Shown one piece after another: positions 8,550 to 55,310 of a stretch of 64,000 nt of DNA (within the stretch, counting starts at the first letter, position 1; every line of letters begins with the position of its first letter). This DNA comes from Candidatus Falkowbacteria bacterium (GTDB lineage: Bacteria > Patescibacteriota > Patescibacteriia > UBA11705 > JABHMO01): positions 18,020 through 82,019 of the forward strand of contig JACRNX010000031.1 of assembly GCA_016214755.1 (NCBI GenBank), given 5' to 3'. Position numbers and translations under genes: made by a program. The notes under the pieces were generated by a model. That model had not been told where the DNA came from, did no database searches, and saw only the letters and a program-made list of their open reading frames with translations.

Positions 8550-8562
8550 ATAGTAGAATTTT

Positions 8563-9567: not shown

Positions 9568-9580
9568 AATAGCTGATGCT

Positions 9581-10540
9581 TTAAGTTATCTGGGATTCTA
9601 TCAACTTATTTATTATATCATTGATTTTCATTGTTGGGGCATAACCAATCGCCGACGCGATTTTCTCGATTGATGGCAGTCGTCGCGCCATATCCTCATA
9701 TCCTTCCGCGTAAGCGTTTTGATATGGAATAAACACGATTTTAGAACTGCAGCCGGTCGCCTTGATCACGCGTTCAGCCAATTCTTTAATGCTAATTTCT
9801 TCTTGACTGCCGATATTATAAACATTGCCGACAGCCATTGGACAATTTATTAATTCAATTAACGCGTTCACGACGTCTTTAACGTAAGTGAAACAGCGCG
9901 TCTGCGTTCCGTCGCCGTAAATCGTAATGTCTTCGTTATTTAAAGCTTGCTTGATAAATCTGGGCAGAACCATGCCGTAGGCGCCGGTTTGGCGCGGACC
10001 GACGGTATTGAATAATCTGACTATTATTGTCGGAATTTTTTTTTCTTTCCAATACAAATACGCCATCACCTCGTCAACGGCCTTGGCGGTCGAATAACTC
10101 CAACGAATTTTTTGCGGGCAGCCCAGAACTCGGTCGCCATCTTCTTTTAATGGAAAATCTTGGCACTTTCCGTAAATTTCCGAGGTGGAAGTCAATAACA
10201 CTTTTTTGCCGAATTGGTTCGCGCTGTTTAACACGTTTTCAGTGCCGTGAATGTTTGTCTTTAACGATTCAAGCGGTTTCTCCATTATTAAATTAACGCC
10301 GACCGCCGCCGCCAGATGAAAAATAAAATCAGCGTCAGCCACGGCTTCATTTACCAATCTTTCATCAAGCACCGAACCTTGAATGAATTGAAAATCTTTG
10401 TTGTCCCGATGATGGGCGATATTTCGCAATGAACCAGTTGATAAATCGTCCAGCGCGACGATTTGGTTTCCTCTTAAAAGCAATTCATCCGCCAAATGAG
10501 AGCCGATAAAACCAGCTCCGCCGGTAATTAAAAATTTCAT
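9581..10540 (-). CDS. NAD-dependent nucleotide-sugar epimerase/dehydratase (UXS/ArnA-C-terminal-like SDR)
   Basis: MKFLITGGAGFIGSHL glycine motif; LLTSTSEIYG and YSTAKAVDE catalytic region resembling UDP-glucuronate decarboxylase family members. Confidence 0.7.
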   Translation of the reverse strand: MKFLITGGAGFIGSHLADELLLRGNQIVALDDLSTGSLRNIAHHRDNKDFQFIQGSVLDERLVNEAVADADFIFHLAAAVGVNLIMEKPLESLKTNIHGTENVLNSANQFGKKVLLTSTSEIYGKCQDFPLKEDGDRVLGCPQKIRWSYSTAKAVDEVMAYLYWKEKKIPTIIVRLFNTVGPRQTGAYGMVLPRFIKQALNNEDITIYGDGTQTRCFTYVKDVVNALIELINCPMAVGNVYNIGSQEEISIKELAERVIKATGCSSKIVFIPYQNAYAEGYEDMARRLPSIEKIASAIGYAPTMKINDIINKLIESQIT

Positions 10541-11682
10541 AATTTATAAAATAATGTTTTTTGATTAAATAGCGATTGATAGAGCGACAGCGTTTGTTCG
10601 TTTATCCGGCGCAGATCAAAGTTTTCGCGGATATGTTTGACGCCGCATTCGCCCATTTTTCTTCGCCGCTCTTTGTCAAACAATTTTATGGTCGCTTCAA
10701 CGAATTGAACGACGCTGTTTGGCGGGAACAGGAAACCAGAACAATTATCGGAAACGACTTCGTCTAATGGCGCGATTTTGCTGGAAATAACCGGAATACC
10801 GCAGGCTTGCGCTTCGGCGAAAACCACGCCAAAACCCTCTCGCCATGTCGGTAAAAAGAAAATATCAAACGCTTGCAAATATGGCAATACGTCGTTTATG
10901 TATCCAAGCAGATGAATTTTTTCATTCAGTCCGCGCGCGGTTATCATTTTTTCAAATTTTTCCCGCTGTTCGCCTTCGCCAAGAATCAAAAATTCCACGT
11001 TAAAATTAGTTTTAAGCGCGTCCGCGCATTCAATTATTGTTTCAATCCCCTTGTCGTTGACCAGTCTTGAAATCGCGCCGACGATGATTTTCTCAATCGG
11101 AATGTTGAGACGCCGGCGAAATTCCACTTTCTGCTCGTCGCCGCATGGCTTGAAGCGTTCAAGATCAATTCCCATGTAAATTTGATGAACCTTGCTTTCA
11201 GGCGCGACCTTGAACGATTGACCGTAACGTTTAACTTCCTTACTGTCAACGATTATCGCGTCGCATAGTTTCCCCGCCAGTTTTTCTAAATATAAATAGT
11301 ACTTTTTTTTCCAAAACGATAAAAATGGATGAAACGGCCAGGCGTGGGCGGTATGGATTATAATAGGCACCTTTTCCGTCCAGGCCGCTATGCGGCCGAT
11401 AAATCCAGCTTTCGCGGTTTGAGTGTGGACCAAATCAAAATTTCCATCCTGAATTATTTTTTTTATTTTGAAAAGAGAAATGATGTCTTTGATCGGATTG
11501 ATTCCGCGCGCGATTTCGATTTCATGGCATTTAAAACCTTGTTGCCGCACGAATTCAGCCTGGCTGCCAATCCCCGCGATTGCTTCAACATAAAATCCCC
11601 GATTCCTTATGAATCGCATGAAATCCAAACTAAATTCTTTTATGCTTGACGGAATAGTCGCGATGAAAAGCACTTTTTTCAT
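10537..11682 (-). CDS. glycosyltransferase family 4 (GT-B)
   Basis: C-terminal EGFGVVFAEAQACGIPVISS (E-x7-E) motif, 381 aa. 4-nt overlap with neighbours. Confidence 0.8.
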   Translation of the reverse strand: MKKVLFIATIPSSIKEFSLDFMRFIRNRGFYVEAIAGIGSQAEFVRQQGFKCHEIEIARGINPIKDIISLFKIKKIIQDGNFDLVHTQTAKAGFIGRIAAWTEKVPIIIHTAHAWPFHPFLSFWKKKYYLYLEKLAGKLCDAIIVDSKEVKRYGQSFKVAPESKVHQIYMGIDLERFKPCGDEQKVEFRRRLNIPIEKIIVGAISRLVNDKGIETIIECADALKTNFNVEFLILGEGEQREKFEKMITARGLNEKIHLLGYINDVLPYLQAFDIFFLPTWREGFGVVFAEAQACGIPVISSKIAPLDEVVSDNCSGFLFPPNSVVQFVEATIKLFDKERRRKMGECGVKHIRENFDLRRINEQTLSLYQSLFNQKTLFYKL

Positions 11683-13956: not shown

Positions 13957-15933
13957 TTATTGTTTCATCAATTTTTCCCAACGCGTCATCGCTTCGTCTA
14001 AATGCCAATACTGCTTGACGAAATACTGAATTTTCTCTCGGTTATTTTGTGACGATTTTAATACCAATTCATTAATTTTCTCTCTTAATTCATCAACGCT
14101 ATATGTTTTCGCATAAAATTCTTCGTGTCCTTTCAGCGGCGACATAAACATCCAAGCGCTTAATACTGGAATCACGACATAACAGCCGAGCGCCAGCGCT
14201 TCCAGCGCCACGGCTGAATCGCCGACTATAAGGATTTTCGCGTTTTGAAGCAATTCATTTATTGGCCTTTGTCTAATGCAAAAATTATTTTCAATGGACT
14301 CGATTTCTAATTTTTTAAAGACGCCATCGAGCGGAAGCGTTGGATGTCCTTTAAACCATATTTTAAATGAATTCGTACCATAAAACGCGCTTTTGACGAG
14401 CGAAATTATTTCTTCTGTCTCCGCGCGGCTGGCTGAAGTCGCGACAACGATTAAGTTATCTTTTGGAGGAAGAATTTGTCTCAACTTTTCATTAAGATAT
14501 AAAAACCGCGTCGCTTCGATTTCTTCCACGCGCGGATAATACGATTGCCTCAATAACGAAGCAGTAATTCCGCCATTGGCCGCGACAACATCATCGACAG
14601 GATAATCATATTTATTTTTTGAAATTTCAACTTGATCGCGGAAATAGAAAAAATAATTCGACGAAACGGAAGTGTGGACATAGCCGATTGTCTCCATCGT
14701 TGGCACGAACATCCGCTTGGCCGCGTTAAGAGCGATTTCCCACGTGTGCATTTCCGCGAAATGCAAGCATTTGCCAGAAAGGGGTAGTCGTTTAAAAGCG
14801 TTGCAAAATAATTCAAGATAGATCAAACTTTCCAATCCCTGCCAACCAACGAAAGAACGGTCGTTCATTTTTTTTATTATCACCGAATAGTCGTTTTGAC
14901 CGAATAACCGCGTGATTTCAGCGTTTAATTTTGTTTTAACCCTTAAATATCTATGTGCCAGCGATGCCCATTGTCGGCAAACGCGCAAAACGCCGGCAAT
15001 AGTTAAAAATTGTTCGAGCAAATAACCATTTTCACCTTTGCTTCGCAGTTGTTTCGCCAGATGAACCGCGTCGCCGTAAGTTCGATTATCAACATAAACG
15101 AACAGCCACAACCAAATAATTTTTTCTTTTATGCTTTTTATCAAGGGTTCGAGTTTCCCCAAAAATTTATTTTCTAATTGTCCATTCTTGACTTTAGCTG
15201 GATCCGCGCACGGAAAATAACTGCAGATTAATAACCCATTATCCTGACTGCCAGCGAATATGGGAATTCGGCCGAGAGCGATTCTTACCTGGATTGCCCG
15301 AATCATCCGGCAGACAAACGTTAAAAAAGCTCTGGCAAAAATTATCGGCAGTCGGTTAGATTGATGCAAGTATCGTTTGATAAGTTTCGATCTTGAAATG
15401 TTTTTCCGCTGTTTACTTTTTAACGCTATGTATTTAATTTTCCGTTGTTGACAAATCGCGCTGATCGCTTGTTTTAATTCCCTATCTTCAACAACGATAC
15501 AGCAATGACTAATATCATAAATGTCAATCGCGCTGGCGATTGCTTCCAGCTGGGCGATCTTAAATAATCCCGAGTTTTTTATCGTATTCTTTTCCGCCAA
15601 TTGCGAGAACCACCAGGCGGAAACATCTCTCCGCGCGATATAAAAATATTGTTTAACATTAACGCCATTGACTATAATTTCACCAGCCGCGCCGATTAAC
15701 TTGGCTATCCTTTCGCGCAGTTTATCAACTTCTCGGTCAATGCTGGCCGCTGTCGGCAGGACTTCCGGATTTATATTGTTTTTTTTAAATAACGCGGATT
15801 TAACAGAGTTAATTATGTCCGGATTCGAAGTCAACGGGAAAAGGAGGCCTTTGCTCTTTGGACAATCCGCTGATTTAATTTTCAATATTGACGACGCGTC
15901 AATCGCATTGTCAAAAATAAATAAATTTTTCAT
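13957..15933 (-). CDS. large soluble protein, possible GT-B-fold glycosyltransferase-like or surface-carbohydrate biosynthesis protein
   Basis: 658 aa. The C-terminal KILIVGDSAVALEALALGCYVVIP resembles the GT-B C-terminal EX7E-like region. No firm family assignment from sequence alone. Confidence 0.3.
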   Translation of the reverse strand: MKNLFIFDNAIDASSILKIKSADCPKSKGLLFPLTSNPDIINSVKSALFKKNNINPEVLPTAASIDREVDKLRERIAKLIGAAGEIIVNGVNVKQYFYIARRDVSAWWFSQLAEKNTIKNSGLFKIAQLEAIASAIDIYDISHCCIVVEDRELKQAISAICQQRKIKYIALKSKQRKNISRSKLIKRYLHQSNRLPIIFARAFLTFVCRMIRAIQVRIALGRIPIFAGSQDNGLLICSYFPCADPAKVKNGQLENKFLGKLEPLIKSIKEKIIWLWLFVYVDNRTYGDAVHLAKQLRSKGENGYLLEQFLTIAGVLRVCRQWASLAHRYLRVKTKLNAEITRLFGQNDYSVIIKKMNDRSFVGWQGLESLIYLELFCNAFKRLPLSGKCLHFAEMHTWEIALNAAKRMFVPTMETIGYVHTSVSSNYFFYFRDQVEISKNKYDYPVDDVVAANGGITASLLRQSYYPRVEEIEATRFLYLNEKLRQILPPKDNLIVVATSASRAETEEIISLVKSAFYGTNSFKIWFKGHPTLPLDGVFKKLEIESIENNFCIRQRPINELLQNAKILIVGDSAVALEALALGCYVVIPVLSAWMFMSPLKGHEEFYAKTYSVDELREKINELVLKSSQNNREKIQYFVKQYWHLDEAMTRWEKLMKQ

Positions 15934-21685: not shown

Positions 21686-24109
21686 TTATTGAAAAAACAG
21701 TTCTCGGTAGCGCGCTTGGTATTCGACAAACACCCTGTTACCTTTCTCGTCAAATTTTTCAGCGCGTTTTATGTTTTCCCATTCATCCCTGGAAAATTTA
21801 ACATATAACGGAAATGTTCGCTGAAGACCTTTTAACTCTTCGTAGCTTAACGGTTGATTTCTTAACGGCACGCTGTCAAGCAGTTGATAAACTTTGTCTT
21901 GCGGCGTTAAATAACCTTTCTCAAGACAAAATTTATGTATTTGCGTCCCTTTGTACGGCGTCATTAAATAGCAATTCATCGTACGCGGATTGATTAAACG
22001 GTTGAATTCTATGGTGTCAAATATCAGCTCGCGCGTCTCTTCAGGAAATCCAATGATATTATTAACAGTGTATGATAGGCCGAATTTTTCGACGATTTTC
22101 AGCGCGTTTAGCATTAATTCGTTCGTGCAATGCCGATTAAGCATTCTGGCGCGAAATTGTTCATTGCCGTGCTCAACGCCAAATTGCATGCTGTCGCAAC
22201 CCATCTCCTTCAATATTTTTATTTTTTCTTCGGTGACCGTCTCTGGTCTTGATTGGCACCAAAATGGAATTTTGATTTCTTGATATAAATCAGAAATTTC
22301 TTTCAATTCTTCAACTGTCCTGGCGAGAAAAGATTCAGCGTTGAAATTAACATAGTCCGGATTATATTTGTGTACGAGATGTTTCATCTCGTCAATAATT
22401 TTTTTAGCGGATTTTTTGCGGTAGTATGCGCCGCATTGATTTTGTTGAAATAATTCTCTTAAACGCGGCGCTTCGCAATAAGTGCACGCGTACGGACAGC
22501 CGCGATCAAGTTCAAGATGGACCATGGTGTAGATTTTCCCGAACATCGGCCGGTAAAGCCGCTCTTTGCCGAATATATCAAAATCAATGACTGCGAGTTT
22601 GTCTAAATCAACAAGCGGCCGCAGCGGATTCTTTATAATTTCGCCGTCTGGCCGTTTTATCCATAAATTTTTAATATCGCAATAATTTTGCCCTCGCGCC
22701 ATTCGTTCGCAAAGTTCAACCAGCGCCTCCTCGCCCTCGCCGAGGCAGACGATATTAACAGAGTCGAGATTTATCACCTCTTCCGGCGAAAAGGTGGCAT
22801 AAACGCCGCCGGCGATAACAGGGACATGAAAATCTTTGATGGAATTGAGCAGCGCGCGGCCAAGTTCAAAAGTATCTTCAACTAACGTAATAGCGATTAA
22901 ATCTGGTTTATAATTTTCAACTTTCTGTTTCAAATCATCGCTGATATTCGTCTCTTTTAATTTTATGCCTGTCTTTTCATAGCTAAACGGTTTGACCTGC
23001 AACAACTCAACTTTTTTTAATTCAAAATTGATATTCTCGGTTTTATAAAAAGTGGTGTCAAAGACATCGGTCTCGATTCCCTTTTCTCTAAGGCAGGCGG
23101 ATAATTGACTGATATGCAGTGGAATTAGCGTCGCCATCATTGTGTTTGGATAAATAAACAAAACTTTGAATTTTTTTGAAGCTAAATTTGACTCGTTAAT
23201 ATTTACTGGCTGACTGGTTTTTATCAGCGGTTCTTGACAGCCAGATAATTCATGATGTATCTCTTCAAAACATTGGAGCAATCCCTGTCCCATATCCAAA
23301 TAAAACGAACTGATGTATTTTCGTCCAATCTTCGGATTGTATGAATACGGCGTCACCTGATAATGGTCTTCAGGGTTTTCCTGTCTGAACTCCATCGGGA
23401 ATTTATTGCCCAGCGCTTCATTAATCATGGTCAACATTTCTTTTGATTTTATCGGATGATGGCCGGACAAAATCACATGCTGGTTGATAAAGTTTTGTTC
23501 CAAAATTTCCACCGAGCACCTAGCCGCGTCTTCGACATGAATATATTCCCTCGTTTCTTCACCGCTGCCCCAGTATGAAATTTTTTGTTCTTGAATTATC
23601 TGCTTCAGCAAACGATAAATCGGATTGCTGTCGTCCGCGCGCGGACCGTACAATGAACCATAGCGCACGATCGTGTAAGGGATATTATATTTTTTTGAAT
23701 ATTCCTCAATATACGCCTCGCAGGCCTGTTTGCTGCTTTTATAAAATGAGCCGGCTTTACTATAAACGTAAACCGAAGAAGCAAAAATATAGCGCTCGAT
23801 TTCTTCGTCTTTTATGGATTCAAGAATATGAGCGTTTCCCAAAATATTGCTTTTTATCGTTTCGAGCGGCAAATTTGAAGCCCTGTCTAAATCGGCCAGT
23901 CCGGCGAAATTATAAACAGCCTTGGCTCCGCTGACAGTTTGCTTCACTTTTTCCAAATCCAAAATGTCGCCGATTATCATTGCTTGCCCTGATTTTAAAT
24001 ATTTTGATTCTTTTAAATCGAAAATCACTACCTGATGACCTTTATCGGTCAGCGCATCGGCGACATGGCTGCCGAGAAATCCAGAACCGCCGAAAACAAT
24101 CGCTTTCAT
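21686..24109 (-). CDS. fusion protein: NAD-dependent epimerase/dehydratase (SDR) domain + cobalamin-binding radical SAM domain
   Basis: N-terminal MKAIVFGGSGFLGSHV ... YKSSK is an SDR. The centre has a B12-binding-like Rossmann domain (KVLFIYPN...DLIAITLVEDT). Downstream is ELDRGCPYACTYCEAP, a CxxxCxxC radical SAM cluster motif. The track ORF begins at a TTG (24154); the ATG at 24109 is used here. Confidence 0.75.
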   Translation of the reverse strand: MKAIVFGGSGFLGSHVADALTDKGHQVVIFDLKESKYLKSGQAMIIGDILDLEKVKQTVSGAKAVYNFAGLADLDRASNLPLETIKSNILGNAHILESIKDEEIERYIFASSVYVYSKAGSFYKSSKQACEAYIEEYSKKYNIPYTIVRYGSLYGPRADDSNPIYRLLKQIIQEQKISYWGSGEETREYIHVEDAARCSVEILEQNFINQHVILSGHHPIKSKEMLTMINEALGNKFPMEFRQENPEDHYQVTPYSYNPKIGRKYISSFYLDMGQGLLQCFEEIHHELSGCQEPLIKTSQPVNINESNLASKKFKVLFIYPNTMMATLIPLHISQLSACLREKGIETDVFDTTFYKTENINFELKKVELLQVKPFSYEKTGIKLKETNISDDLKQKVENYKPDLIAITLVEDTFELGRALLNSIKDFHVPVIAGGVYATFSPEEVINLDSVNIVCLGEGEEALVELCERMARGQNYCDIKNLWIKRPDGEIIKNPLRPLVDLDKLAVIDFDIFGKERLYRPMFGKIYTMVHLELDRGCPYACTYCEAPRLRELFQQNQCGAYYRKKSAKKIIDEMKHLVHKYNPDYVNFNAESFLARTVEELKEISDLYQEIKIPFWCQSRPETVTEEKIKILKEMGCDSMQFGVEHGNEQFRARMLNRHCTNELMLNALKIVEKFGLSYTVNNIIGFPEETRELIFDTIEFNRLINPRTMNCYLMTPYKGTQIHKFCLEKGYLTPQDKVYQLLDSVPLRNQPLSYEELKGLQRTFPLYVKFSRDEWENIKRAEKFDEKGNRVFVEYQARYRELFFQ

Positions 24110-24160
24110 ATTAATGATTTTAAAATATTTTCCGAAGGATATAGTCCTGCCCAATTGTTT

Positions 24161-26086
24161 CTATCGTTCGCGTAATACTTTTAATAACTCATCGCTATCA
24201 TTTATTAATCCGCCGCCTGTCGGATTGCCAAGCGTTTGCTTCAACGCGTTAATAAATATTTTCATCTGCTCGACATTGCCAATGCTGACGCGAATGCAAT
24301 CGCTGAGTGGGCAGTTCGCGACGCCGGATTTTATCAGGATTTTTTGTTCGCGCATTTTTTGTTCTAGCTGAACGCTTTTTTCATGACTGCCAACCTTGAT
24401 ATTGATAAAATTCGCGTAGCTTTTATGAAACGGCAGATTCATTTCCGCGAGCGACTTTTCCAAATATTCTTTTCCGGCGGCTGTCTCGCGCAAATTATTT
24501 TCGACGATCCGCGGATGATCAATAATATATTCCGCGAAACGGACGCCGAATGCGTTCGCTTCGTACATTGGCCGGACTTTGTGCAAGCATTCAATTATTT
24601 TTTCATTGCTGACGACAAAACCCAAACGGCCGGCGGCCAGCCCTTGAGCTTTGGAAAATGTTCTAGTTATCATTAAATTCGGATACTTCTTTATTAAATG
24701 AATCGCGGTTTGACTATAATATGGATAATACGCTTCATCTATTAAAACAATTACTCTGTTTGCGGCCGCGCGATTAATAATTTTTTCAAGCTCGGCCGGA
24801 GACAGGACCGTCCCGGTCGGACTGTTCGGATTCGCCAGACAAATTAATTTTGGCTTTTGAATTTCAATTTGATTGATGATTTTTTCCGTGTTAATGCACA
24901 ATCCGTCTTCATAATTAATCAAAATCGCTTTCGCCTGAAACATTTTTGTGTAAACGTCGTACATCGCGTATGTCGGCCAAAGCGTCATTACTTTATCATC
25001 CGGTTCCACAAAAATTTCAAAAGCCGCCTTTATTCCCGCGTCCGAGCCGGCCGTGATATATAAATATTCTTGGGCGACGCCTAAACTCTTGGCTGTCTTT
25101 TTATACAGCGCGTCTAGCTCGGGATAGGCGGAAATAAATTCCGGACTGATTAATCGTTTTATTTCGTCTAAAAATTCAGACGACATTGGTATTAAATTTT
25201 CGTTTTTGTCTAATCTTAAGTATTCTAAACGGCTTTGTTGAGGGTTTCCAACCCGAGTTAAATCCAGCAAATGTTTTTTTGTCGGCAATTTAAAATTTTT
25301 AAAATCGTATGGCGTCGCGCGTTCCGTAAAACCATGTTTATTCAACCAATAAACCACGCCCGGGATTTGCCATTCAAAATCAACATCGCAGCCACCCCAT
25401 TGTTTGAGAGGATAAATTTTTTGCCCCATCCATTTTTGCGGCAATAATCCGCTCGCGAGATTTTCCAAACAACGCGGCCGAACGATGGACACGCCCATAT
25501 CCGCGAACCAAACATCGCCTTGCGAATCGCGGTCGCAATTCAATGTTCTGGGGTCGCCGAATGTTTCAAACGCCACGAACGGCTCCAGCAATCCCTGGGA
25601 ATTTTCCCGGCGCGCGCGCAATGGGCTCCACATGTTGTATGGCGAAACCGTGACCGCTGAATCAAAATCCGGACGTTCCTTTAATACTGCGATCCCCTGG
25701 TCAATTGTTTCTGATAAAATTGTCGCTGCATTGCAAAAAAACAAAACAAGCAATTCAACTTCTTTGCCTTGTTGCCGATAAAATTCCTTGATGATTTGAT
25801 ACCCGTGCGCGAACGCGTCTTCGCCCAGCGCCTGCTTAGTCGCTAATTCAGCCGGCCGATTGATTATTTCCAGCCCATATTTTCGTCCAATCTCTTTGTA
25901 TTCCTCTGAATCAGTGGAAAAAAATATTTTGTCAACGTATTTTGAATTTAATCCAGCTATCATTGGATAAACCATAAGCGGCCGGCCTAACACTTGATAG
26001 GTATTTTTCCCGGGAAACCCGACACTGCCGGCTCTTCCGAGTAAAAGTCCGGCAATAATTCTATTGTTTTCTTTACTGTCCGACAT
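24161..26086 (-). CDS. fusion protein: NeuA/KdsB-like CMP-sugar cytidylyltransferase domain + class I/II (HisC/CobD-like) PLP-dependent aminotransferase/decarboxylase domain
   Basis: N-terminal LLLGRAGSVGFPGKN ... FFSTDSEE matches the acylneuraminate cytidylyltransferase family. The C-terminal half has LRLDKNENLIP and ITRTFSKAQGLAAGRLGFVV, the HisC/CobD-type PLP lysine motif. Confidence 0.7.
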   Translation of the reverse strand: MSDSKENNRIIAGLLLGRAGSVGFPGKNTYQVLGRPLMVYPMIAGLNSKYVDKIFFSTDSEEYKEIGRKYGLEIINRPAELATKQALGEDAFAHGYQIIKEFYRQQGKEVELLVLFFCNAATILSETIDQGIAVLKERPDFDSAVTVSPYNMWSPLRARRENSQGLLEPFVAFETFGDPRTLNCDRDSQGDVWFADMGVSIVRPRCLENLASGLLPQKWMGQKIYPLKQWGGCDVDFEWQIPGVVYWLNKHGFTERATPYDFKNFKLPTKKHLLDLTRVGNPQQSRLEYLRLDKNENLIPMSSEFLDEIKRLISPEFISAYPELDALYKKTAKSLGVAQEYLYITAGSDAGIKAAFEIFVEPDDKVMTLWPTYAMYDVYTKMFQAKAILINYEDGLCINTEKIINQIEIQKPKLICLANPNSPTGTVLSPAELEKIINRAAANRVIVLIDEAYYPYYSQTAIHLIKKYPNLMITRTFSKAQGLAAGRLGFVVSNEKIIECLHKVRPMYEANAFGVRFAEYIIDHPRIVENNLRETAAGKEYLEKSLAEMNLPFHKSYANFINIKVGSHEKSVQLEQKMREQKILIKSGVANCPLSDCIRVSIGNVEQMKIFINALKQTLGNPTGGGLINDSDELLKVLRER

Positions 26087-26148: not shown

Positions 26149-28044
26149 TTATTTAATGGATTTTGACCCCGCTGAACTAATTTTCCCAGCGTAAAAATAG
26201 ACAAAACGGTTTTTCATTGGAATCAAAACTTTTTCAAAATATTCAATCATTATTTGTCCATCTTTCGGCCTCCTCGGCATATAATACACGCCGATTTCTC
26301 TGGATGGAATTTCGTTTAATGAGACAACCTTTCCGATTGAAAATAAATTGGCCAATTCTGACGCTTTTTCAGACGGCATATCCGCGGAAATGCCAATTAT
26401 CATCGTATTAGCCGAGCCATAAGTTTCATCGTAATCCCAATGATTTTTCAAATTAGGAAAAGCGTATTCGCGAAGTGGCATTGGGCCGTCAATAATGACT
26501 TTTGCCGGCAAATAGTAATAATCGCTGAAATCGAAATATAAAGCACGATTCTTCGCATTTTGTTGCGACCATTCAATTAAATTGCGATAGGCGCCATATT
26601 CAGGCCGGCGCGCCGGCGTGATAATTTCGCGATTAACTTGGAAAGAAACAGACAACAACGCGAAGATAGTCAAATAAATTAAGACGCTGATTTTTCTTCT
26701 GTCGCTTATCAAATGATTATCTGCGATAAACATGCCAATGATGGCGAAAAACGGCGCCATCAGGCCATAACGCGCGTATGGTTCGCATTCAATTCTAAAA
26801 AAAACAAATAAATACATTAAAAAATATATGGCTAACAATTTTAAAACGAATCGTTTAGCTTCAGTTTGCTCGCGATACCACTGTCGTATTTTCGCGAAAC
26901 GAAACGCGCTCCAACTTTTACGCGAAAAAACATTCAATCCGACGAAAACAAATGATAATAGCAAAAGTAATGCCACTTGAGTAATAAAACCAACGGCCGC
27001 TAATTGATAGCGGTACCAATTATTGTCGCCGTGCAAGGTTGACCAGCGCGTCCATTTTAACCCTAATGCCTCGCGCGCCTTGACAAAATTTTCAGGCAAC
27101 GGAGGAACAACGCTGGTGGTTAAATCGCTTAACATGTTCGGGACGAGACCATGCAAATTCAAATGAAATTGCGTTTTCCCCAGCGAAGCGAGCGTAATTA
27201 TTTGCCACGTTTTAAACCAAGTTTTCGTGTAACGAATTATATGTGAAAATCCTGTTTCTGTCGTTCGAAGTTTGTCATATTCTTTTGAGTAATAATAGAC
27301 CTGCGCCATCTGCAAGAAACCGCCGACGATCGCCAATAAGAGCAGCAGAGCGACAACCTTCTTCCGCTGCCAGCGGGAAATAAGCAAGATAAAACTTACG
27401 GCCAAAGCGAAAACAATGCCGAAGAAATGAATCGCGGACAATAAAAACAACGCGACAGCGGCCATAATTAAATTAAAAATCTGGAAACCGGCTAATAATT
27501 TTGAGGCGTGATACAAAGAGACGCAAAATAATAAAATCAAAAGCGGCATCCAGCGGCTGACTTCGAGATAACTGAAAATCGGCCAAGATAAAAAGAATAA
27601 AAGGCAAATTACGCGCGCGCTGGATTTTTTTTCCGGGAAAATTAAAATTAATAGACGATAGAGAGAATAAAAAGCCAAGCAATTAATTAATATCATCAGT
27701 AATTTTGAGCAAACGAGAAACACGAAAGTGTTATTTAAATTTAAAAACCAAGAAATGCATTTTAATGGCGCGAGATAAAAAAATTGAAAAAGATTACTGA
27801 CGGAAGTGTAAATATAATCATAGCCGTTGACTGGCGCCGATGCCAACGGCGCGGCCAGATTTGACAAATCATTTAAACGCAGAAAAGTCGAGCGCAAGGT
27901 TAAATCAAACCAATGATAATCCGGCGCGTACTCTTCATAATTAAATGGGTGGGGAAATCGGAAAGCAAGCGAAACGGAAATCGCGATTATTATAATGATA
28001 ATCGTCGCCAGCCAAATTTTTTCTAATTTCAAAAACTTATTCAT
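26149..28044 (-). CDS. large polytopic membrane protein with C-terminal soluble domain (GT-C-like or unknown function)
   Basis: 631 aa, about 13 hydrophobic helices, then a 150-aa soluble tail. No recognisable motif. Confidence 0.3.
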   Translation of the reverse strand: MNKFLKLEKIWLATIIIIIIAISVSLAFRFPHPFNYEEYAPDYHWFDLTLRSTFLRLNDLSNLAAPLASAPVNGYDYIYTSVSNLFQFFYLAPLKCISWFLNLNNTFVFLVCSKLLMILINCLAFYSLYRLLILIFPEKKSSARVICLLFFLSWPIFSYLEVSRWMPLLILLFCVSLYHASKLLAGFQIFNLIMAAVALFLLSAIHFFGIVFALAVSFILLISRWQRKKVVALLLLLAIVGGFLQMAQVYYYSKEYDKLRTTETGFSHIIRYTKTWFKTWQIITLASLGKTQFHLNLHGLVPNMLSDLTTSVVPPLPENFVKAREALGLKWTRWSTLHGDNNWYRYQLAAVGFITQVALLLLLSFVFVGLNVFSRKSWSAFRFAKIRQWYREQTEAKRFVLKLLAIYFLMYLFVFFRIECEPYARYGLMAPFFAIIGMFIADNHLISDRRKISVLIYLTIFALLSVSFQVNREIITPARRPEYGAYRNLIEWSQQNAKNRALYFDFSDYYYLPAKVIIDGPMPLREYAFPNLKNHWDYDETYGSANTMIIGISADMPSEKASELANLFSIGKVVSLNEIPSREIGVYYMPRRPKDGQIMIEYFEKVLIPMKNRFVYFYAGKISSAGSKSIK

Positions 28045-28765
28045 ATTCGTCGTCCTTTTTCCCTTTGGACAAATTTAGTTTAGATATAAAATGTAAATTT
28101 TTGTTAAAAAGAAAGCTTGTCAATCGCGGATAAATATTTAACTGATTGATTGTTTCTTGATTGACAAGATTATTTTTTTGAAATAGTAATTTCCATCTCT
28201 GACGCGACAAATAGTTAAAAGGCAGCGGTATATTGTAAAAATAATTGCCAATCCAGTCCATAAGACGGAGCCGGACAATGTCCCAGTGCGTTTCCGCGAA
28301 ATGATCCTTGATTAATAAAAATTGACGCGCGACTCGGCTACATTCAGCTAATAATTTTTCAGGCGATTCAACGTGATGAAGAACATCAACCAGCATAACA
28401 AAATCAAAAGAATCATTCGAGAACGGCAGGTTTTGTCCGTTAAATTCAACTACTTCTATTAACGTGCCTTTTCGGAGATTAATTTCCGCGCCTATTATAT
28501 TGACTGGCGGTTTTTGCGTTCGCATGCGATGGCTGATCTCGCCGGTGCCGCAGCCAACGTCCAGCCCGCTCATTCGCTGATTGTCCGGCAATAATCGGCA
28601 AAGATATCGCGAAATCGAGCGGACGCGGTACTGGTTGATAAAGCGTTGATGCAGTTTTTGACTGATTTTATTTATCATCTTAAATAGTTTATTATCAAGC
28701 GAGTGAGTGAAATGTCCCGCTTTGGCGGGATCATTTCCGAGCGAGCGCAGATAATACAGGTTCAA
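28037..28765 (-). CDS. class I SAM-dependent methyltransferase
   Basis: LDVGCGTGEIS motif I and downstream acidic motif II (VMLVDVLHHV). Confidence 0.75.
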   Translation of the reverse strand: MNLYYLRSLGNDPAKAGHFTHSLDNKLFKMINKISQKLHQRFINQYRVRSISRYLCRLLPDNQRMSGLDVGCGTGEISHRMRTQKPPVNIIGAEINLRKGTLIEVVEFNGQNLPFSNDSFDFVMLVDVLHHVESPEKLLAECSRVARQFLLIKDHFAETHWDIVRLRLMDWIGNYFYNIPLPFNYLSRQRWKLLFQKNNLVNQETINQLNIYPRLTSFLFNKNLHFISKLNLSKGKKDDEYE

Positions 28766-29997: not shown

Positions 29998-30903
29998 TTA
30001 TTTTTTTATTATGAAATTTATTATGCCTGTTTTTTTAAATATTTTCGCGATAAAGTTTATTGGAATGAAAACAATCAAAAGTAGATTGTAATATTTCGTT
30101 CTTCCATAGCGCAGTTTGCTCTTGAATAATTTAGTTGACTGAAAATAATTTTGCGCGGACAGCGCCCAGTGTGAAGTATTTAAATTATAAGTTATTTGAC
30201 AATTGTCAAAACCAGCTTGCTGAACTGTTAAGCTCAAAGACGCGGGCGTGAAATCGTACAAATGGCGGGGCGCGTGAAGTCCGCCCCAATATTTTTTAGA
30301 TAAAATAAAATCCCACGACGCGATGTTTGGCAGTTCGCCGATGACGTAACCGCCGGGCTTTAATTTTCTTTTCGCTTTTTTTAATAGTTCGACGGGCGAA
30401 GACACATGTTCAAGCAAATGGTCCATTATCACGAGATCGAAATAATCATCGGGGAAATCAGCGTTCTCAAAAGTGCCAATGTAAATACTTCGCCCTTCGC
30501 TAATGCCGACGTTCGCGATTTCACTGTTAAATTCAACGCCGACGAAATGCCAATTTGTCCTTTTCGCGAAATAATCCATGTAATGTCCGTCTCCACAGCC
30601 GATATCAAGTATCCGGGCATTGTCGCCAATCAACGATTTATAAAAAGCCAATCGTTTTTTTAATCGGAGACGCTGTAATGTATTAAAAATTTTTGATTTT
30701 ACGCGCGCGTAATTATAACCATGATATTCCTTCGGATAAGCTCTAAGTAATTCACCGGTCATGAGTTTCGGCTCGAGTTCGCCTAAGCCGCAGCGCGGGC
30801 ATTGGTAAAGCGAAAAAAATCCCGGGTATTCATATTCGAAATCCTGACAGTTGCTTTCAAGGCGAACCTGTTCATGATTACAGACAGGACAATTATTATT
30901 CAT
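29998..30903 (-). CDS. SAM-dependent methyltransferase with N-terminal zinc-ribbon
   Basis: CPVCNHE...CPRCG four-Cys ribbon followed by ILDIGCGDGHYMDYF (class I MTase motif I). Confidence 0.7.
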   Translation of the reverse strand: MNNNCPVCNHEQVRLESNCQDFEYEYPGFFSLYQCPRCGLGELEPKLMTGELLRAYPKEYHGYNYARVKSKIFNTLQRLRLKKRLAFYKSLIGDNARILDIGCGDGHYMDYFAKRTNWHFVGVEFNSEIANVGISEGRSIYIGTFENADFPDDYFDLVIMDHLLEHVSSPVELLKKAKRKLKPGGYVIGELPNIASWDFILSKKYWGGLHAPRHLYDFTPASLSLTVQQAGFDNCQITYNLNTSHWALSAQNYFQSTKLFKSKLRYGRTKYYNLLLIVFIPINFIAKIFKKTGIINFIIKK

Positions 30904-30914
30904 AAAAAAGACGG

Positions 30915-31943
30915 CTATAAATTTCTATAATAAACCGGCGATTCGTTTGCTTGGTTTATTTTTTTTGTCACGCCATTTATGTAAGCGGCTTCTCCAGCCG
31001 GACGGCAGTATTTATAAGAAGTTTGAAAATATGAAAAGCGAGTCATCTCGCGCCATATATCCTTTATCTCTTCTTGGCGGATATTGCCGAAACTGACATG
31101 ATTTAGGGAACAACCCATGACATCGCCGTACGGCGAAAGGCAAAATTTTTCTCGGCCGGCCGGACATTGCGACCGGCCTTCATAATTCAAAGAAAAACAT
31201 AATCTCATCCGCGGATATTTTTTTATCAAAGCGTCGAGCTGGCGCCAGTCCTCGTCGCTTAATAACACGTCTTCGTTATTTTCCCAATTCCCTACTGGCA
31301 CGGCTGGCGCCGGATTTAGCAGTAGTCCGTTTATCGAAGCGAACTCGCAAATGTCAGCGAGGCGGTTAATGTTTTTATGGGTTATGGTAAAAGAAATCGC
31401 CGTCAATAAAGAATATTTTTTCGCGTATCCAATTACATTCATGGCTTTGTCGAAATGGCCTTGGACGCCCCTTAGTTCATCATTTTCTTCGGCTGTTAAT
31501 CCATCTAAACTGACTTGCAGATAATCAATCATTGATTCTTTAAGCCGGTGAACATCATTTTCGTTGACTGACAAACAATTTGTCAGTAAGCCGATAATCG
31601 TCTTCCGCGGCTGAAGCGCGGCGATGATTTCAAACAAATCCGGCCTCATGAAAGGCTCGCCGCCCGTGATAACAGCGCAAAACGCGTCTAAGCGCAAGCA
31701 TTTTTCCCAGAATAATTTTACTTCCTCGGGCTGAATAAGCGTTTTGCCGCCGCATTTTAATTTGCTGGAAAAACACATTTCGCATTTTGAATTGCAATCC
31801 GGCGTGATTTGAATCTCCACGTTGCGAAGAGGTTTTCGCTTAAGAAATTTGCTTTTTATCACGCCATTAACTAAGCGCTTTGCGGCCAGAGGTTTGCGTC
31901 GCAATAATTCACAATAAGAAATGATTTTTTTTATCGGCAACAT
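30915..31943 (-). CDS. radical SAM enzyme with C-terminal SPASM/twitch-like Cys-rich domain
   Basis: ITPDCNSKCEMC (CxxxCxxC) near the N-terminus. The C-terminal auxiliary cluster region is SQCPAGREKFCLSPYGDVMGCS. Confidence 0.75.
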   Translation of the reverse strand: MLPIKKIISYCELLRRKPLAAKRLVNGVIKSKFLKRKPLRNVEIQITPDCNSKCEMCFSSKLKCGGKTLIQPEEVKLFWEKCLRLDAFCAVITGGEPFMRPDLFEIIAALQPRKTIIGLLTNCLSVNENDVHRLKESMIDYLQVSLDGLTAEENDELRGVQGHFDKAMNVIGYAKKYSLLTAISFTITHKNINRLADICEFASINGLLLNPAPAVPVGNWENNEDVLLSDEDWRQLDALIKKYPRMRLCFSLNYEGRSQCPAGREKFCLSPYGDVMGCSLNHVSFGNIRQEEIKDIWREMTRFSYFQTSYKYCRPAGEAAYINGVTKKINQANESPVYYRNL

Positions 31944-31962: not shown

Positions 31963-32634
31963 TTATGTTTTTATAATCAGCATTAAATTACTCGTCATCG
32001 CGGCTAGTTTGAATTTTTTAACCGCTATGGACGCGCCAGCCGGGACTAAATTTAAAAATTTTTTCTTTGACAGCAGATTCAGATTTTCTTTATCGGCGAA
32101 AAAATTTTTTCCAAAAAGACGGCAAATAGCGCGGAACCAGGCGGACGGAAGCCAATGCGCGAGAGGAACCAGAGTGTGAAATTCCAAAGGAAACCAACGA
32201 TTTGGGGTTGAAACGCAAATGGTCTTTCCAACGCGGCACAACTCGCGCATGAACATTTTCTGATTTTCGTTATCGCCGACATGTTCAATGGTGGCAAAAC
32301 TGACTACCAGATCAAAACTATTATCCTTAAAAGGAAGCCGCCGGCCATCAGCTTGAATAAATTTCAACCCGGGAAAATCATGTTCCAAAAAACTCGCGTC
32401 TTGCGCGCCAACCGCGGTTATTTGATTGGCGAAAGGATATAATTTTTCAAAAAAATTACAATCAGCCCGCTCGTCAGAAGTCACGCCGACATCCAACACG
32501 GTCGCTCGCACTGAAGGATTCACGGTTGAAATTATCGTGTCAAACATCTGCCGGCGAACTTGCCATGAAATTTTTTCAATAATCCGATTAAGCCAAGGCT
32601 GGTACTGATGGTAATTGCTGTTGGTCTGGACCAT
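31963..32634 (-). CDS. class I SAM-dependent methyltransferase (Methyltransf_11-like)
   Basis: VLDVGV...DLVVSFATIEHV pattern; 223 aa. Confidence 0.5.
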   Translation of the reverse strand: MVQTNSNYHQYQPWLNRIIEKISWQVRRQMFDTIISTVNPSVRATVLDVGVTSDERADCNFFEKLYPFANQITAVGAQDASFLEHDFPGLKFIQADGRRLPFKDNSFDLVVSFATIEHVGDNENQKMFMRELCRVGKTICVSTPNRWFPLEFHTLVPLAHWLPSAWFRAICRLFGKNFFADKENLNLLSKKKFLNLVPAGASIAVKKFKLAAMTSNLMLIIKT

Positions 32635-32637
32635 AAT

Positions 32638-33606
32638 TTAGACAATGGACTTTTTTATTTCACTATCGCGCAAGAAACAGCCGTCGCAACCAGGAATCGT
32701 GTGCGCCAATCCGGCTTTATGTTTTTCGCGGATTTCGTTTAATCGCGTAGAATGCCACATATCAAAAATTGAAGCGTTTCTGACGTTGCCAAGCGCGATT
32801 AGTTTTTCCTCGTCATGATTGCACGGCAAAAAGGTCCCGTCCCACATCACGGCCGCTCTTTGCCATATTTGCGGGCAAGTCCAATCAGCGCTAATTCCAA
32901 GATGTTTATTTTTCATATCTTTAAAATCAAGGTAGGCGACCTCGTCAGCGCCGTTATCAAGCCAGAAATCCTTGTATTGCTCGTAAACGTCTTTCAATTC
33001 AGGCACGGCGACGGTTTGAATTCTTATTTTCGGATAATCAACTGACAGCGCTTTTTTTCTGGCGACAAGGTTACGTATATTTTGAACCACAATTTCAAAA
33101 TTTGAACCCACGCGATGCTTCTCATATATTTCCTTCGTGTATCCCTCGAAAGAAATTGAAATCCTGTCCAATCGAGCGTCAATCAATTTCCGCGCCATAT
33201 CGTCATTTAACAACAAACCATGCGAATTAAAATAAACATCAATTAATCCCCTGTCTTTCGCGTATCGAACAAATTCGTGAATTTGAGGATGAAGAAGCGG
33301 TTCGCCGCGGAAATTGAACTTAACGCCGCACAATCCTTTGTCCGCGCCTTCGTCAATAATTTTTTTAACTAAGTCGAAGGTTATAAATCCGCCGATGATT
33401 CTCTCTCTATTGTAGCAGAAAGTACACTTTAAGTTGCACGCGCTTGTTGATTCAATATCAATGAACAAAGGAAAACCCCCGACATAAAATGATTTTGGCC
33501 ACTCTTCCCAATGACGGCGATATTGCTTGAATTTTTCGTCATCCTTATCTAAAACGTTTTTTCCGCCCAAAGAATGAAAGTTCGAATTTACGCTGATTGT
33601 CGGCAT
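32638..33606 (-). CDS. radical SAM enzyme with C-terminal SPASM domain
   Basis: ESTSACNLKCTFCYN (CxxxCxxC). The C-terminus has CPQIW...CNHDEEKLIALGN...GCDGCF, a typical SPASM auxiliary-cluster Cys pattern. Confidence 0.75.
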   Translation of the reverse strand: MPTISVNSNFHSLGGKNVLDKDDEKFKQYRRHWEEWPKSFYVGGFPLFIDIESTSACNLKCTFCYNRERIIGGFITFDLVKKIIDEGADKGLCGVKFNFRGEPLLHPQIHEFVRYAKDRGLIDVYFNSHGLLLNDDMARKLIDARLDRISISFEGYTKEIYEKHRVGSNFEIVVQNIRNLVARKKALSVDYPKIRIQTVAVPELKDVYEQYKDFWLDNGADEVAYLDFKDMKNKHLGISADWTCPQIWQRAAVMWDGTFLPCNHDEEKLIALGNVRNASIFDMWHSTRLNEIREKHKAGLAHTIPGCDGCFLRDSEIKKSIV

Positions 33607-55303: not shown

Positions 55304-55310
55304 ACATGAA

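Follow-up and report, generated by a model that had tools for sequence, protein, structure and literature searches.

The window (the whole 64-kb stretch of DNA that was analysed) comes from an uncultured groundwater bacterium and contains a large cluster for surface sugars, in which one gene on the minus strand (21686..24109, 807 aa plus stop) encodes both an SDR and a B12-radical SAM enzyme. The open reading frame listed for this strand spans 21686..24154 (822 aa), with TTG as its mechanical start. The protein likely begins at the ATG at 24109, giving 807 aa, since its SDR homologues all open with MKxIVFGGSGFLG and the NCBI record of the fused protein (MBI5077292.1) starts at the same ATG.

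The three-domain make-up proposed in an earlier note on this DNA (epimerase, B12-binding and Radical_SAM) was borne out by a Pfam search that placed all three domains above their cut-offs. In the numbering of the 822-aa frame these are Epimerase PF01370 at aa 19-220 (E=4e-43, 148 bits vs a cut-off of 20.9), B12-binding PF02310 at aa 401-481 (E=4.5e-12, 46.3 bits vs 32.1) and Radical_SAM PF04055 at aa 551-717 (E=7e-20, 72.3 bits vs 29.5). The GxxGxxG, YxxxK and CxxxCxxC motifs quoted there are present as GGSGFLG (aa 7-13), YKSSK (aa 123-127) and CPYACTYC (aa 538-545) in the 807-aa numbering, the last within ELDRGCPYACTYCEAP. In the same numbering and on the minus strand, the polypeptide comprises an extended-SDR domain (aa 1-291; 23237..24109) with GGSGFLG, Asp31 and the Ser111/Tyr123/Lys127 triad; a 20-aa polar linker, QEPLIKTSQPVNINESNLAS (23177..23236); a cobalamin-binding-type Rossmann domain (aa 312-471; 22697..23176) whose strand 1, which is conserved, reads FKVLFIYPN and in which GG and GEGE are invariant; the radical SAM core (aa 536-702; 22004..22504), with the cluster motif CPYACTYC at 22475-22498; and a mainly helical C-terminal domain (aa 703-807; 21689..22003) which is kept across the family.

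The product of 21686-24109 is a genuine covalent fusion of an SDR and a B12-radical SAM enzyme. The earlier note had put the linker at 16 aa (about 23150-23250) and raised the chance of indels there; at 20 aa it is slightly longer, its frame is open with neither stop nor ATG, GTG or TTG, and an independent assembly is identical. Across 23177-23236 the SDR and radical SAM homologies share one frame, without stop or frameshift between them, and no homology to the SDR or radical SAM family was found in the remaining two frames over the linker. In related loci the SDR gene ends with its stop codon, and the radical SAM gene starts, at the place taken here by the linker. In the Logan assembly of run SRR12113407, 7671 bp match the window with 99.97% identity, and the fused gene itself is identical end to end. 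In the fused protein, each half keeps the residues that are invariant in its family.

It is very improbable that no fused protein exists and that two separate genes were welded by an error of sequencing or of assembly, through an indel or a stop codon read wrongly. Such an error would fit with the presence of two separate genes at every other locus checked and with a fusion known from a single population, and in one locus (L026) the pair lies in frame, one stop and one codon apart, where a single base change could imitate a fusion. In the window, however, two changes would be required, as the stop is missing and no ATG, GTG or TTG occurs ahead of FKVLFIYPN; the alternative frames lack homology, the public reads give the identical gene with a second assembler, and adjoining genes of the same lineage are fused as well. 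In addition, the SDR of L009, a syntenic locus from Kuenenbacteria, ends in a long polar tail of similar kind, followed in the same frame by a C-terminal relic of the radical SAM enzyme, which is consistent with a fused ancestor.

Junction checks at the DNA level in 25 loci with an SDR directly ahead of a radical SAM gene found the two fused in this genome only; in the unfused loci they are separate genes, often overlapping and mostly in different frames. The rarity of the fusion rests on these 25 checks, the wider survey for fusions being incomplete. Two junction-spanning word-index protein searches returned standalone SDRs and fragments and missed the fused protein of the window itself, hence they are not evidence of absence, and an exhaustive representative search did not list the window's own protein, so that the library searched may conceal fused members. 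The sole long two-stretch matches of the latter search (P0121 and P0125) were rejected as further fusions, being intein-containing radical SAM proteins. A scan of IMG/VR gave distant relatives only (30-43% identity), without the orthologous module and without a fusion, and a distant paralogous pair of an SDR and a B12-radical SAM gene (L112) is separated by 2 nt. Other joinings tie genes of the same module to one another and speak for the coupling, as does the closeness of the L112 pair; they include an SDR-HAD fusion (L001), a 565-aa unknown family fused to a B12-radical SAM domain (P0025), a cytidylyltransferase-aminotransferase fusion in the window and a cytidylyltransferase-aminotransferase-methyltransferase fusion in L009. 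Taken from the sequences compared, the fusion appears to be recent, specific to one lineage and made in frame from two genes that are widespread as a pair and normally encode two proteins. The covalent link is genuine, but the fusion does not stand for a distinct enzyme class.

The functional link between the two halves, also suggested earlier, is strongly backed: at least 23 further loci from several phyla have an SDR ortholog immediately upstream of a radical SAM ortholog, with gaps from -10 nt upwards. Since this tight SDR-then-radical SAM order recurs in many phyla and the two are covalently joined here, it is highly probable that they form a real, fused and functionally coupled pair.

The SDR half matches standalone SDRs of 290-305 aa over their full length with 54-74% identity. 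GGSGFLG, S111 and Y123/K127 vary little or not at all across the SDR family (141 sequences), and the Asp31 that closes strand 2 is invariant; an Asp in this position favours NAD over NADPH. The half is predicted to be a GalE-like, NAD-type extended SDR that works on a sugar carbinol as an oxidoreductase or epimerase. The suggestion that it is a 4,6-dehydratase generating a keto-sugar had to be abandoned. RmlB-type 4,6-dehydratases carry a catalytic Thr-Asp-Glu trio adjoining the active-site Ser/Thr, which is replaced in the SDR half by S111-S/T112-V/I/L113 (motif S-[ST]-[VIL]-Y), and the NDP-hexose 4,6-dehydratase models fell far short (dTDP_gluc_dehyt 83.6 vs 365; LegB 81.8 vs 475). The nearest solved relatives are GalE-type UDP-hexose 4-epimerases (E about 1e-21 to 1e-23), with which the SDR half shares GxxGxxG, the Ser/Tyr/Lys triad and an active-site strand of the S-S-x-x-V-Y type. 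Unlike GalE (310-340 aa), the SDR half is shorter (about 291 aa) and its phmmer matches mostly end at about residue 205-250, which points to a divergent C-terminal substrate-binding part. The galE model TIGR01179 scores 70.5 bits vs a cut-off of 262, and that of the hopanoid-associated sugar epimerase HpnA matches weakly (70 vs 367.65). The SDR half resembles GalE in its active-site motifs and is not a GalE orthologue.

The C-terminal part is predicted to be a cobalamin-type (class B) radical SAM enzyme. The three cluster cysteines of CX3CX2C, the GG (G126-G127), E150 of GEGE and the Cys-loop motif are invariant in 65/65 family members; the GG, GE and Cys-loop motifs have been named for cobalamin-type radical SAM enzymes (PMC9204698). 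The family profile aligns over the B12 domains of MgmA, TsrM, OxsB, CysS and TokK. An AF2 structure, predicted for the radical SAM half only (pLDDT 96, pTM 0.93), retrieved TsrM, OxsB, MgmA, AprD4, CysS and TokK as top Foldseek matches (E 1e-25 to 1e-15, TM 0.6-0.7), all of them enzymes of the B12-radical SAM fold, and the model has the predicted class B fold. Methylases, OxsB and AprD4 are all equally distant from it (TM 0.6-0.7, 15-18% identity). None of the NCBIfam curated families reaches its cut-off on the fused protein. The curated models that score best on the radical SAM half, all far under cut-off, are HpnJ, TIGR04013 and BchE, from the non-methylase part of the superfamily; HpnJ is the top family (121 bits, E=6e-35), with BchE and the ladderane B12-radical SAM enzyme following. 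Curated methylase models give 79/600 (PhpK), 64.5/650 (HpnR), 71/282 (rSAM_ocin_1) and 62/360 (MJ_0865). Members of the radical SAM subfamily share 60-67% identity between phyla, and both halves belong to highly conserved uncharacterised families, with up to 74% (SDR) and 67% (radical SAM) identity across phyla. Literature searches on the fused family or its gene context found no paper and, as the earlier note had supposed, the curated NCBIfam and literature searches turned up no characterised enzyme with the SDR-B12-radical SAM architecture.

The pair recurs with a set of partners. Besides a CTP_transf_3 cytidylyltransferase, a TIGR04326 protein and a SPASM radical SAM enzyme, the set has one of two alternatives, which are a HisC-like aminotransferase or a PGDH-like dehydrogenase together with a HAD phosphatase. 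The most constant neighbour is the cytidylyltransferase, which in the window is fused to a HisC-like class I/II aminotransferase directly upstream (24161..26086, minus strand); the two are separate genes in L007, L008 and L023, and in L009 both are joined to a methyltransferase in one three-part protein. A SPASM-type radical SAM enzyme (32638..33606, minus strand) has 44-69% identity to orthologues beside the pair in other loci. The TIGR04326 'surface carbohydrate biosynthesis protein' (658 aa; 13957..15933, minus strand) lies about 6 kb downstream, past a CDP-hexose cassette, and in L003, L008, L010 and L026 the gene right after the B12-radical SAM gene encodes its homologue; the TIGR04326 protein had no match among solved structures, either as a single sequence or as a profile. 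A 631-aa unknown protein upstream (26149-28044) had been considered as the homologue of the protein trailing the radical SAM gene elsewhere and was rejected, the true homologue being the TIGR04326 protein. The surrounding cluster is devoted to glycan assembly (Wzx, Wzy-like protein, glycosyltransferases), a CDP-glucose pathway lies immediately downstream of the fused gene, and neither hopanoid genes (within the 64-kb window) nor PEP mutase or phosphonate genes were seen. This context suggests that the SDR and the radical SAM enzyme are part of a recurrent surface-glycan tailoring module.

The substrate had been proposed to be an NDP-4-keto sugar. In that generic form the proposal does not hold; a cytidine-nucleotide-linked compound is more likely, because the conserved partner is a CTP_transf_3 cytidylyltransferase. 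The idea that this enzyme is the sole cytidylyltransferase of the cluster, and hence specific for a nonulosonic acid, was rejected, as a second CTP_transf_3 gene lies beside PseB/PseC/PseI-like genes. A CDP-hexose may be the substrate, and is kept as a candidate because of the CDP-glucose pathway directly downstream and the second cytidylyltransferase in the cluster.

The explanation that best accommodates these data, with a probability of roughly 0.4, is a bifunctional fused enzyme that performs consecutive steps, including a C-methylation, on one cytidine-activated sugar or sugar acid. A single cytidine-nucleotide-activated intermediate would be worked on by the two domains in succession: the radical SAM domain would cleave SAM, remove a hydrogen atom from an sp3 carbon that is not activated and transfer a methyl group from methylcobalamin, and the SDR would oxidise or epimerise the hydroxyl next to the modified carbon. 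The SDR step could also prepare transamination by the adjoining HisC-like aminotransferase, following the logic of GenK and then GenQ/GenB1. Two deletions that left the SDR in place make the radical SAM step look like a dispensable decoration: beside an intact SDR there is a C-terminal remnant in L009 and an N-terminal remnant in L026.

As regards the chemistry of the radical SAM domain, GenK/Fom3-like C-methylation is the leading guess, held tentatively at somewhat below even odds. No sequence signature is known that tells methylases from other class B enzymes, and it counts against methylation that no sequence or fold trait was found here that parts methylases from other class B chemistries. 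The C-methylation foreseen in the earlier note is one of three chemistries allowed by the data, the nearest solved relatives including the non-methylases AprD4 and OxsB and the top curated model being HpnJ. [quoted passage not shown]

It is unlikely that the pair instead performs a deoxygenation of the AprD4/AprD3 type, in which the radical SAM domain would act as a 1,2-diol dehydratase converting a sugar diol into a keto-deoxy sugar, with no need for cobalamin, and the SDR would reduce the ketone to the deoxy sugar. AprD4 (6fd2) is the best PDB sequence match (E=2e-15 with the single sequence, 2.6e-28 with the profile, over the radical SAM core and the C-terminal part), it has the top target-normalised TM-score (0.74) against the predicted radical SAM structure, and its dedicated reductase partner AprD3 (PMC5461906) recalls the tight, fusable SDR-radical SAM pair. 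The AprD4 match stops short of the N-terminal domain, however, where the cobalamin domains of MgmA, TsrM, OxsB, CysS and TokK align, and GG and GE, the cobalamin motifs, do not vary among family members; the NCBIfam AprD4 model (NF033070) scores 62.5 bits vs 500, over the core and C-terminal region only, and the invariant Asp31 favours NAD while AprD3 uses NADPH. An intact SDR in the two loci with a deleted radical SAM gene is likewise unexpected for a pure reductase of the radical SAM product, an argument that appears of moderate weight because both deletions look recent. A radical rearrangement of the carbon skeleton, of the HpnJ/OxsB type, is quite improbable. In this case a branched or carbocyclic sugar would arise through contraction or rearrangement of the ring by the B12-radical SAM domain, with the SDR oxidising or reducing the intermediate beforehand or afterwards. 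The leading position of HpnJ among the curated families, its proposed role in contracting a sugar ring (PMC9204698) and the place of OxsB among the top fold matches speak for it; yet the HpnJ score (TIGR03471) is far under the cut-off of 577.6, so that the radical SAM half is not an HpnJ orthologue, methylases are similar to the same degree, and a rearrangement would usually be a committed step, which fits poorly with two independent gene losses from otherwise intact syntenic clusters.

The class B radical SAM family is very large and most of its members lack an assigned reaction; those known to act on sugars are a small set. The fusion serves as a Rosetta stone that links a conserved, widespread radical SAM subfamily to a specific GalE-like SDR and a cytidylyltransferase-centred glycan module, and it narrows the candidate substrates to CMP- or CDP-linked sugars. 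A defined minimal system is available, either the single polypeptide or the two-gene pair of a complete Omnitrophota genome (CP070780.1; L003 9132-11503), and the syntenic Kuenenbacteria locus, which lacks only the radical SAM part, offers a natural knock-out for comparison. A wider and rather doubtful proposal is that the pair is the signature of an undescribed, widespread pathway to a new C-modified (C-methylated, branched or ring-rearranged) cytidine-activated sugar or sugar acid of anaerobe surface glycans, with the fused enzyme carrying out two consecutive steps on a bound intermediate; the carriers would include candidate-phyla bacteria, Omnitrophota, Dehalococcoidales and methanogen-related archaea, and a phage-like element has the module too. 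Should the product be a new C-modified sugar, it would widen what is known of surface-glycan chemistry in bacteria and archaea and enlarge the set of sugar-acting B12-radical SAM enzymes; should the enzyme be another C-methylase, the result would still provide a useful annotation for the several hundred homologues recovered.

Among known systems, GenK and GenD1, the class B C-methyltransferases of the gentamicin pathway, likewise combine a cobalamin domain with a radical SAM domain and act on a sugar, and the neighbourhood logic they share with GenQ/GenB1 is mirrored here by an SDR fused to the radical SAM enzyme and a HisC-like aminotransferase encoded next door; the comparison concerns domains and neighbourhood and not close sequence kinship. 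Unlike these aminoglycoside enzymes, the fused gene lies in a surface polysaccharide cluster with a cytidylyltransferase, its dehydrogenase is covalently joined and its methylation is putative. With Fom3, the class B methylase of fosfomycin synthesis, it has in common a cytidylyltransferase tied to the enzyme, here as the most constant neighbour; Fom3 acts on a phosphonate, however, and the model of the related PhpK family stays far below its 600-bit cut-off. AprD4/AprD3 of the apramycin pathway also pair a radical SAM enzyme having an N-terminal Rossmann-like domain with a nicotinamide-dependent partner and act on a sugar, whereas the family described here keeps the GG and GE cobalamin motifs and its SDR is predicted to be of the NAD and not the NADPH type. 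HpnJ, of hopanoid cyclitol ether synthesis, is a B12-type radical SAM enzyme too and a proposed sugar-ring remodeller; unlike it, the fused gene lies in a glycan-assembly setting free of hopanoid genes.

The bifunctional polypeptide encoded on the minus strand at 21686–24109 (807 aa) is genuine, and its two halves, a GalE-like SDR and a class B-type radical SAM enzyme, are strongly coupled genomically within a cytidylyltransferase-centered glycan module. The mechanical ORF is longer (822 aa, 21686–24154, minus strand, TTG start); this TTG is probably not the true start and the ATG at 24109 is favored, since all homologous SDRs begin with MKxIVFGGSGFLG and the NCBI entry, through which the sequence is already public under a generic name (MBI5077292.1, 807 aa, “NAD-dependent epimerase/dehydratase family protein”, Candidatus Falkowbacteria), also starts there. 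The earlier note had described a three-domain fusion and advised HMM searches, and these bore it out: the Pfam domains Epimerase (E = 4e-43), B12-binding (E = 4.5e-12) and Radical_SAM (E = 7e-20) all score above their curated cut-offs, and the quoted motifs are present (GGSGFLG, YKSSK and ELDRGCPYACTYCEAP). In the 807-aa numbering the protein comprises the SDR (aa 1–291; 23237–24109), a linker (aa 292–311; 23177–23236), the B12 domain (aa 312–471; 22697–23176), the radical SAM core (aa 536–702; 22004–22504) and a helical C-terminal domain (aa 703–807; 21689–22003), all on the minus strand.

The same note cautioned that a frameshift might have joined two separate genes. Homology to SDRs ends at ...HHELSGC and homology to radical SAM proteins begins at KKFKVLFIYPN in the same frame, bridged by QEPLIKTSQPVNINESNLAS; no homology was found in the other two frames at the junction, and a scan of the junction revealed no in-frame stop. 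Nor does any ATG, GTG or TTG occur from the end of the SDR to the first B12-domain strand, a conserved element that nearly all standalone homologs possess downstream of their own start codon. As stop and start codons are both absent, at least two independent errors would be needed to make the fusion from two normal genes. Over 7.7 kb the Logan assembly of run SRR12113407 (L027), whose reads may share a sample with the window assembly, agrees with the window at 99.97% identity, and across the fused gene it does not differ at all; an error specific to one assembler is thereby ruled out. In Kuenenbacteria, the fully syntenic locus L009 has an SDR that bears a similar long polar tail, and the stop of this SDR is followed in the same frame by a relic of the last ~25 radical SAM codons (10957–11082; AEKFDEQGSRIFNEYQERFRNDFLN and a stop), with 15 of 25 residues identical to the window protein by our own reading of the alignment output; tail and relic would fit an ancestor that was already fused. 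The lineage joins adjacent genes freely, as in the upstream neighbor of the fused gene (24161–26086, minus strand), where a HisC-like aminotransferase, scoring 252 bits with the hisC model (cut-off 277), is attached to a CMP-sugar-synthetase-like CTP_transf_3 domain, in an 875-aa L009 protein adding a methyltransferase to these two (7367–9994), in a sugar isomerase-GT2 protein of L009, and in DegT-B12-radical SAM (48382–51024, minus strand) and NTP-transferase-HAD (54110–55363) proteins of the window. The single frame, the missing stop and start, the identical second assembly, the relic and the other fusions make an artefact very unlikely.

The fusion is rare among orthologous loci; distant, non-orthologous proteins that join Epimerase, B12-binding and Radical_SAM domains may exist. 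In the database survey of the architecture that had been recommended, the window protein was the sole fused match among the best 120 to the full-length query, the remainder being standalone B12-radical SAM proteins (~497 aa, 59–67% identity) from Omnitrophota, Nealsonbacteria, Nitrospirae, Syntrophorhabdaceae and other groups. Standalone SDR relatives (~293 aa, up to 74% identity) often occur on the same contigs as the standalone radical SAM relatives. At the DNA level (17 genome loci, 48 metagenome loci and loci from exact look-ups) an SDR ortholog lies directly upstream of a radical SAM ortholog in 25 loci, two of which are fused, namely the window and L027, representing the same population. 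In the other 23 the first gene ends in a stop codon and the second has its own start, and in 20 of them the pair occupies different frames, overlapping or with short gaps. In L026 the two are in frame with only a stop and one codon between them, an indication of how readily such a fusion could come about. Two junction-spanning protein searches that failed their positive control were left out of the rarity count; sub-length protein queries returned neither the window's own 807/822-aa protein nor any full-length radical SAM protein, and the window protein was also missing from an exhaustive search of representatives, so that such surveys may overlook long multidomain proteins. The gene order recurs beyond the orthologous family, again unfused, on a 219-kb IMG/VR contig (L112, 4997–7359), where two distant relatives, an SDR-like gene (329 aa, ~25% identity) and, beginning 2 nt after its end, a B12-radical SAM-like gene (456 aa, ~24% identity), stand in this order.

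In a family alignment the SDR half retains the dinucleotide motif and the Ser111/Tyr123/Lys127 triad, as well as an invariant Asp31 where strand 2 ends. An Asp at this position is characteristic of NAD-type SDRs. No curated HMM family reaches its cut-off for this half. Of the two roles initially suggested for it, formation of a keto-sugar or of an epimer, that of a keto-sugar-generating dehydratase is not sustained, since the Thr-Asp-Glu trio of 4,6-dehydratases is absent and the closest solved relatives are GalE-type 4-epimerases; on sequence grounds this half is most readily interpreted as an oxidoreductase or epimerase that works on a sugar carbinol. The radical SAM half is most likely a class B enzyme that truly binds cobalamin, a prediction based on its fold, the alignment of its cobalamin domain and its motifs. 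The modeled structure, of very high confidence (pLDDT 96, pTM 0.93), is matched in Foldseek by TsrM, OxsB, MgmA (9ccb), AprD4, CysS and TokK (all TM 0.6–0.7, 15–18% identity), the N-terminal domain aligns in profile comparisons with the cobalamin domains of MgmA, TsrM, OxsB, CysS and TokK, and the GG, GE and Cys-loop motifs, which are conserved cobalamin and cluster elements (PMC9204698), are invariant in 65 family members. AprD4 differs in matching the core and C-terminal part, not the cobalamin domain. No curated family model reaches its cut-off for this half (HpnJ 121 against 578, TIGR04013 106 against 251, BchE 91 against 481, AprD4 62.5 against 500).

Comparison with 26 related loci defined the partners that accompany the SDR and B12-radical SAM orthologs: a CTP_transf_3 cytidylyltransferase (55–72% identity), a SPASM radical SAM enzyme (44–69% identity) and either a HisC-like aminotransferase or a phosphoglycerate-dehydrogenase-like 2-hydroxyacid dehydrogenase with a HAD phosphatase, sometimes both. 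Directly after the radical SAM gene lies a TIGR04326 protein or an unrelated protein of ~565 aa. CTP_transf_3 and the HisC-like aminotransferase are separate genes in L007, L008 and L023. Further Rosetta-stone fusions link parts of the same module: the Nealsonbacteria ortholog of the SDR carries a fused HAD phosphatase (L001 3134–4618, 494 aa), and in P0025 (L002 1211–4459, 1082 aa) a ~580-aa member of the 565-aa family (as in L001 9483–11180) is fused N-terminal to the B12-radical SAM enzyme. Three loci (L004 8691–11102, L005 and L006; proteins P0121 and P0125) encode B12-radical SAM orthologs with an intein inside the cluster motif (DRGCPF / CTYCEAP) that includes a NUMOD3 homing-endonuclease part; their contigs appear phage-like (thymidylate synthase, 5′-3′ exonuclease, HNH, PD-(D/E)XK) and keep the module (SPASM radical SAM, CTP_transf_3, methyltransferase, 2-hydroxyacid dehydrogenase, SDR and TIGR04326-like protein). 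The radical SAM gene has been lost independently at least twice with the SDR and the remaining cluster genes intact, in L009 and in L026, where only its first ~22 codons remain (about 9990–10080; MKDNFKVLFIYPNTMMATLVP... and a stop), directly followed by the TIGR04326 gene.

The 64-kb window is almost wholly one minus-strand glycan cluster. Besides GT1 and GT2 enzymes, an initiating Glycos_transf_4 and Wzx- and Wzy-like proteins, it encodes several sugar pathways, among them PseB/PseC/PseI-like genes with their own CTP_transf_3 and a GDP-heptose-type set that comes with two more B12-radical SAM genes. The next genes downstream of the fusion encode a CDP-glucose 4,6-dehydratase (470 bits, over cut-off), accompanied by a glucose-1-phosphate nucleotidyltransferase and two DegT enzymes. 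The 880-aa protein at 48382–51024 combines a PseC-like DegT aminotransferase (aa 13–380) with a B12-binding/radical SAM part (aa ~412–810) that shares 31% identity with the radical SAM half of the SDR fusion; in L003 a B12-radical SAM gene and a DegT gene are adjacent and unfused. The third B12-type radical SAM gene (51021–53087, minus strand, 688 aa) best matches the KedN5 family of methylcobalamin-dependent C-methyltransferases (176 bits, under the cut-off of 700), beside SIS (47768–48367), SDR (53059–54099), NTP-transferase-HAD and GHMP kinase (55311–56309) genes of the GDP-heptose-type set. Two SPASM-type genes (30915–31943 and 32638–33606), interleaved with three class I methyltransferases (28037–28765, 29998–30903 and 31963–32634), all on the minus strand, bring the cluster to five radical SAM proteins, which is unusual in a polysaccharide locus. 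The minus-strand stretch 38968–45066 encodes a DXP-synthase/transketolase-like ThDP enzyme (40236–42059), a classical short-chain dehydrogenase (42031–42801) and three ATP-grasp ligases (38968–40254, 42776–43957 and 43933–45066), which suggest that a sugar is decorated with an amino acid or a two-carbon branch. The otherwise continuous cluster is broken at 57152–58206, the sole stretch with plus-strand ORFs of at least 150 aa (three overlapping, 166–187 aa).

We infer that a single cytidine-nucleotide-linked sugar or sugar acid is processed in turn by the SDR and radical SAM domains. The leading proposal, which is tentative (probability about 0.4), is that the radical SAM domain would C-methylate an unactivated carbon and the SDR would oxidize or epimerize the adjacent hydroxyl, possibly enabling transamination by the neighboring HisC-like enzyme. 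C-methylation is favored on several grounds: the majority of annotated class B enzymes appear to methylate (PMC9204698), GenK with GenQ/GenB1 after it offers a direct precedent on sugars (PMC5461906), a class B methylase can need a cytidylylated substrate, as in Fom3 (PMC8158854), and the radical SAM step resembles a decoration in that the cluster can persist without it. The main rival, an AprD4/AprD3-like deoxygenation, draws on AprD4 being the nearest solved sequence for the radical SAM core and having a dedicated reductase partner, but it is unlikely given that the cobalamin motifs are intact, the SDR half is NAD-type and the SDR is kept where the radical SAM gene is lost. Somewhat less probable again is an HpnJ/OxsB-like rearrangement, to which only the best curated HMM match of the radical SAM half (HpnJ) would point.

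Within the library searched, no paper on this family or its gene context came to light, in agreement with the earlier note, whose author was unaware of a characterized enzyme of this kind, and the combination of SDR, B12-binding and radical SAM domains appears undescribed. The fusion provides a Rosetta-stone link to, and an experimental handle on, a large and conserved class B subfamily without an assigned reaction. SDR or reductase partners are already known for sugar-acting radical SAM enzymes; the fused architecture, rather than a new kind of enzyme, is the lineage-specific covalent form of a widespread two-gene unit.
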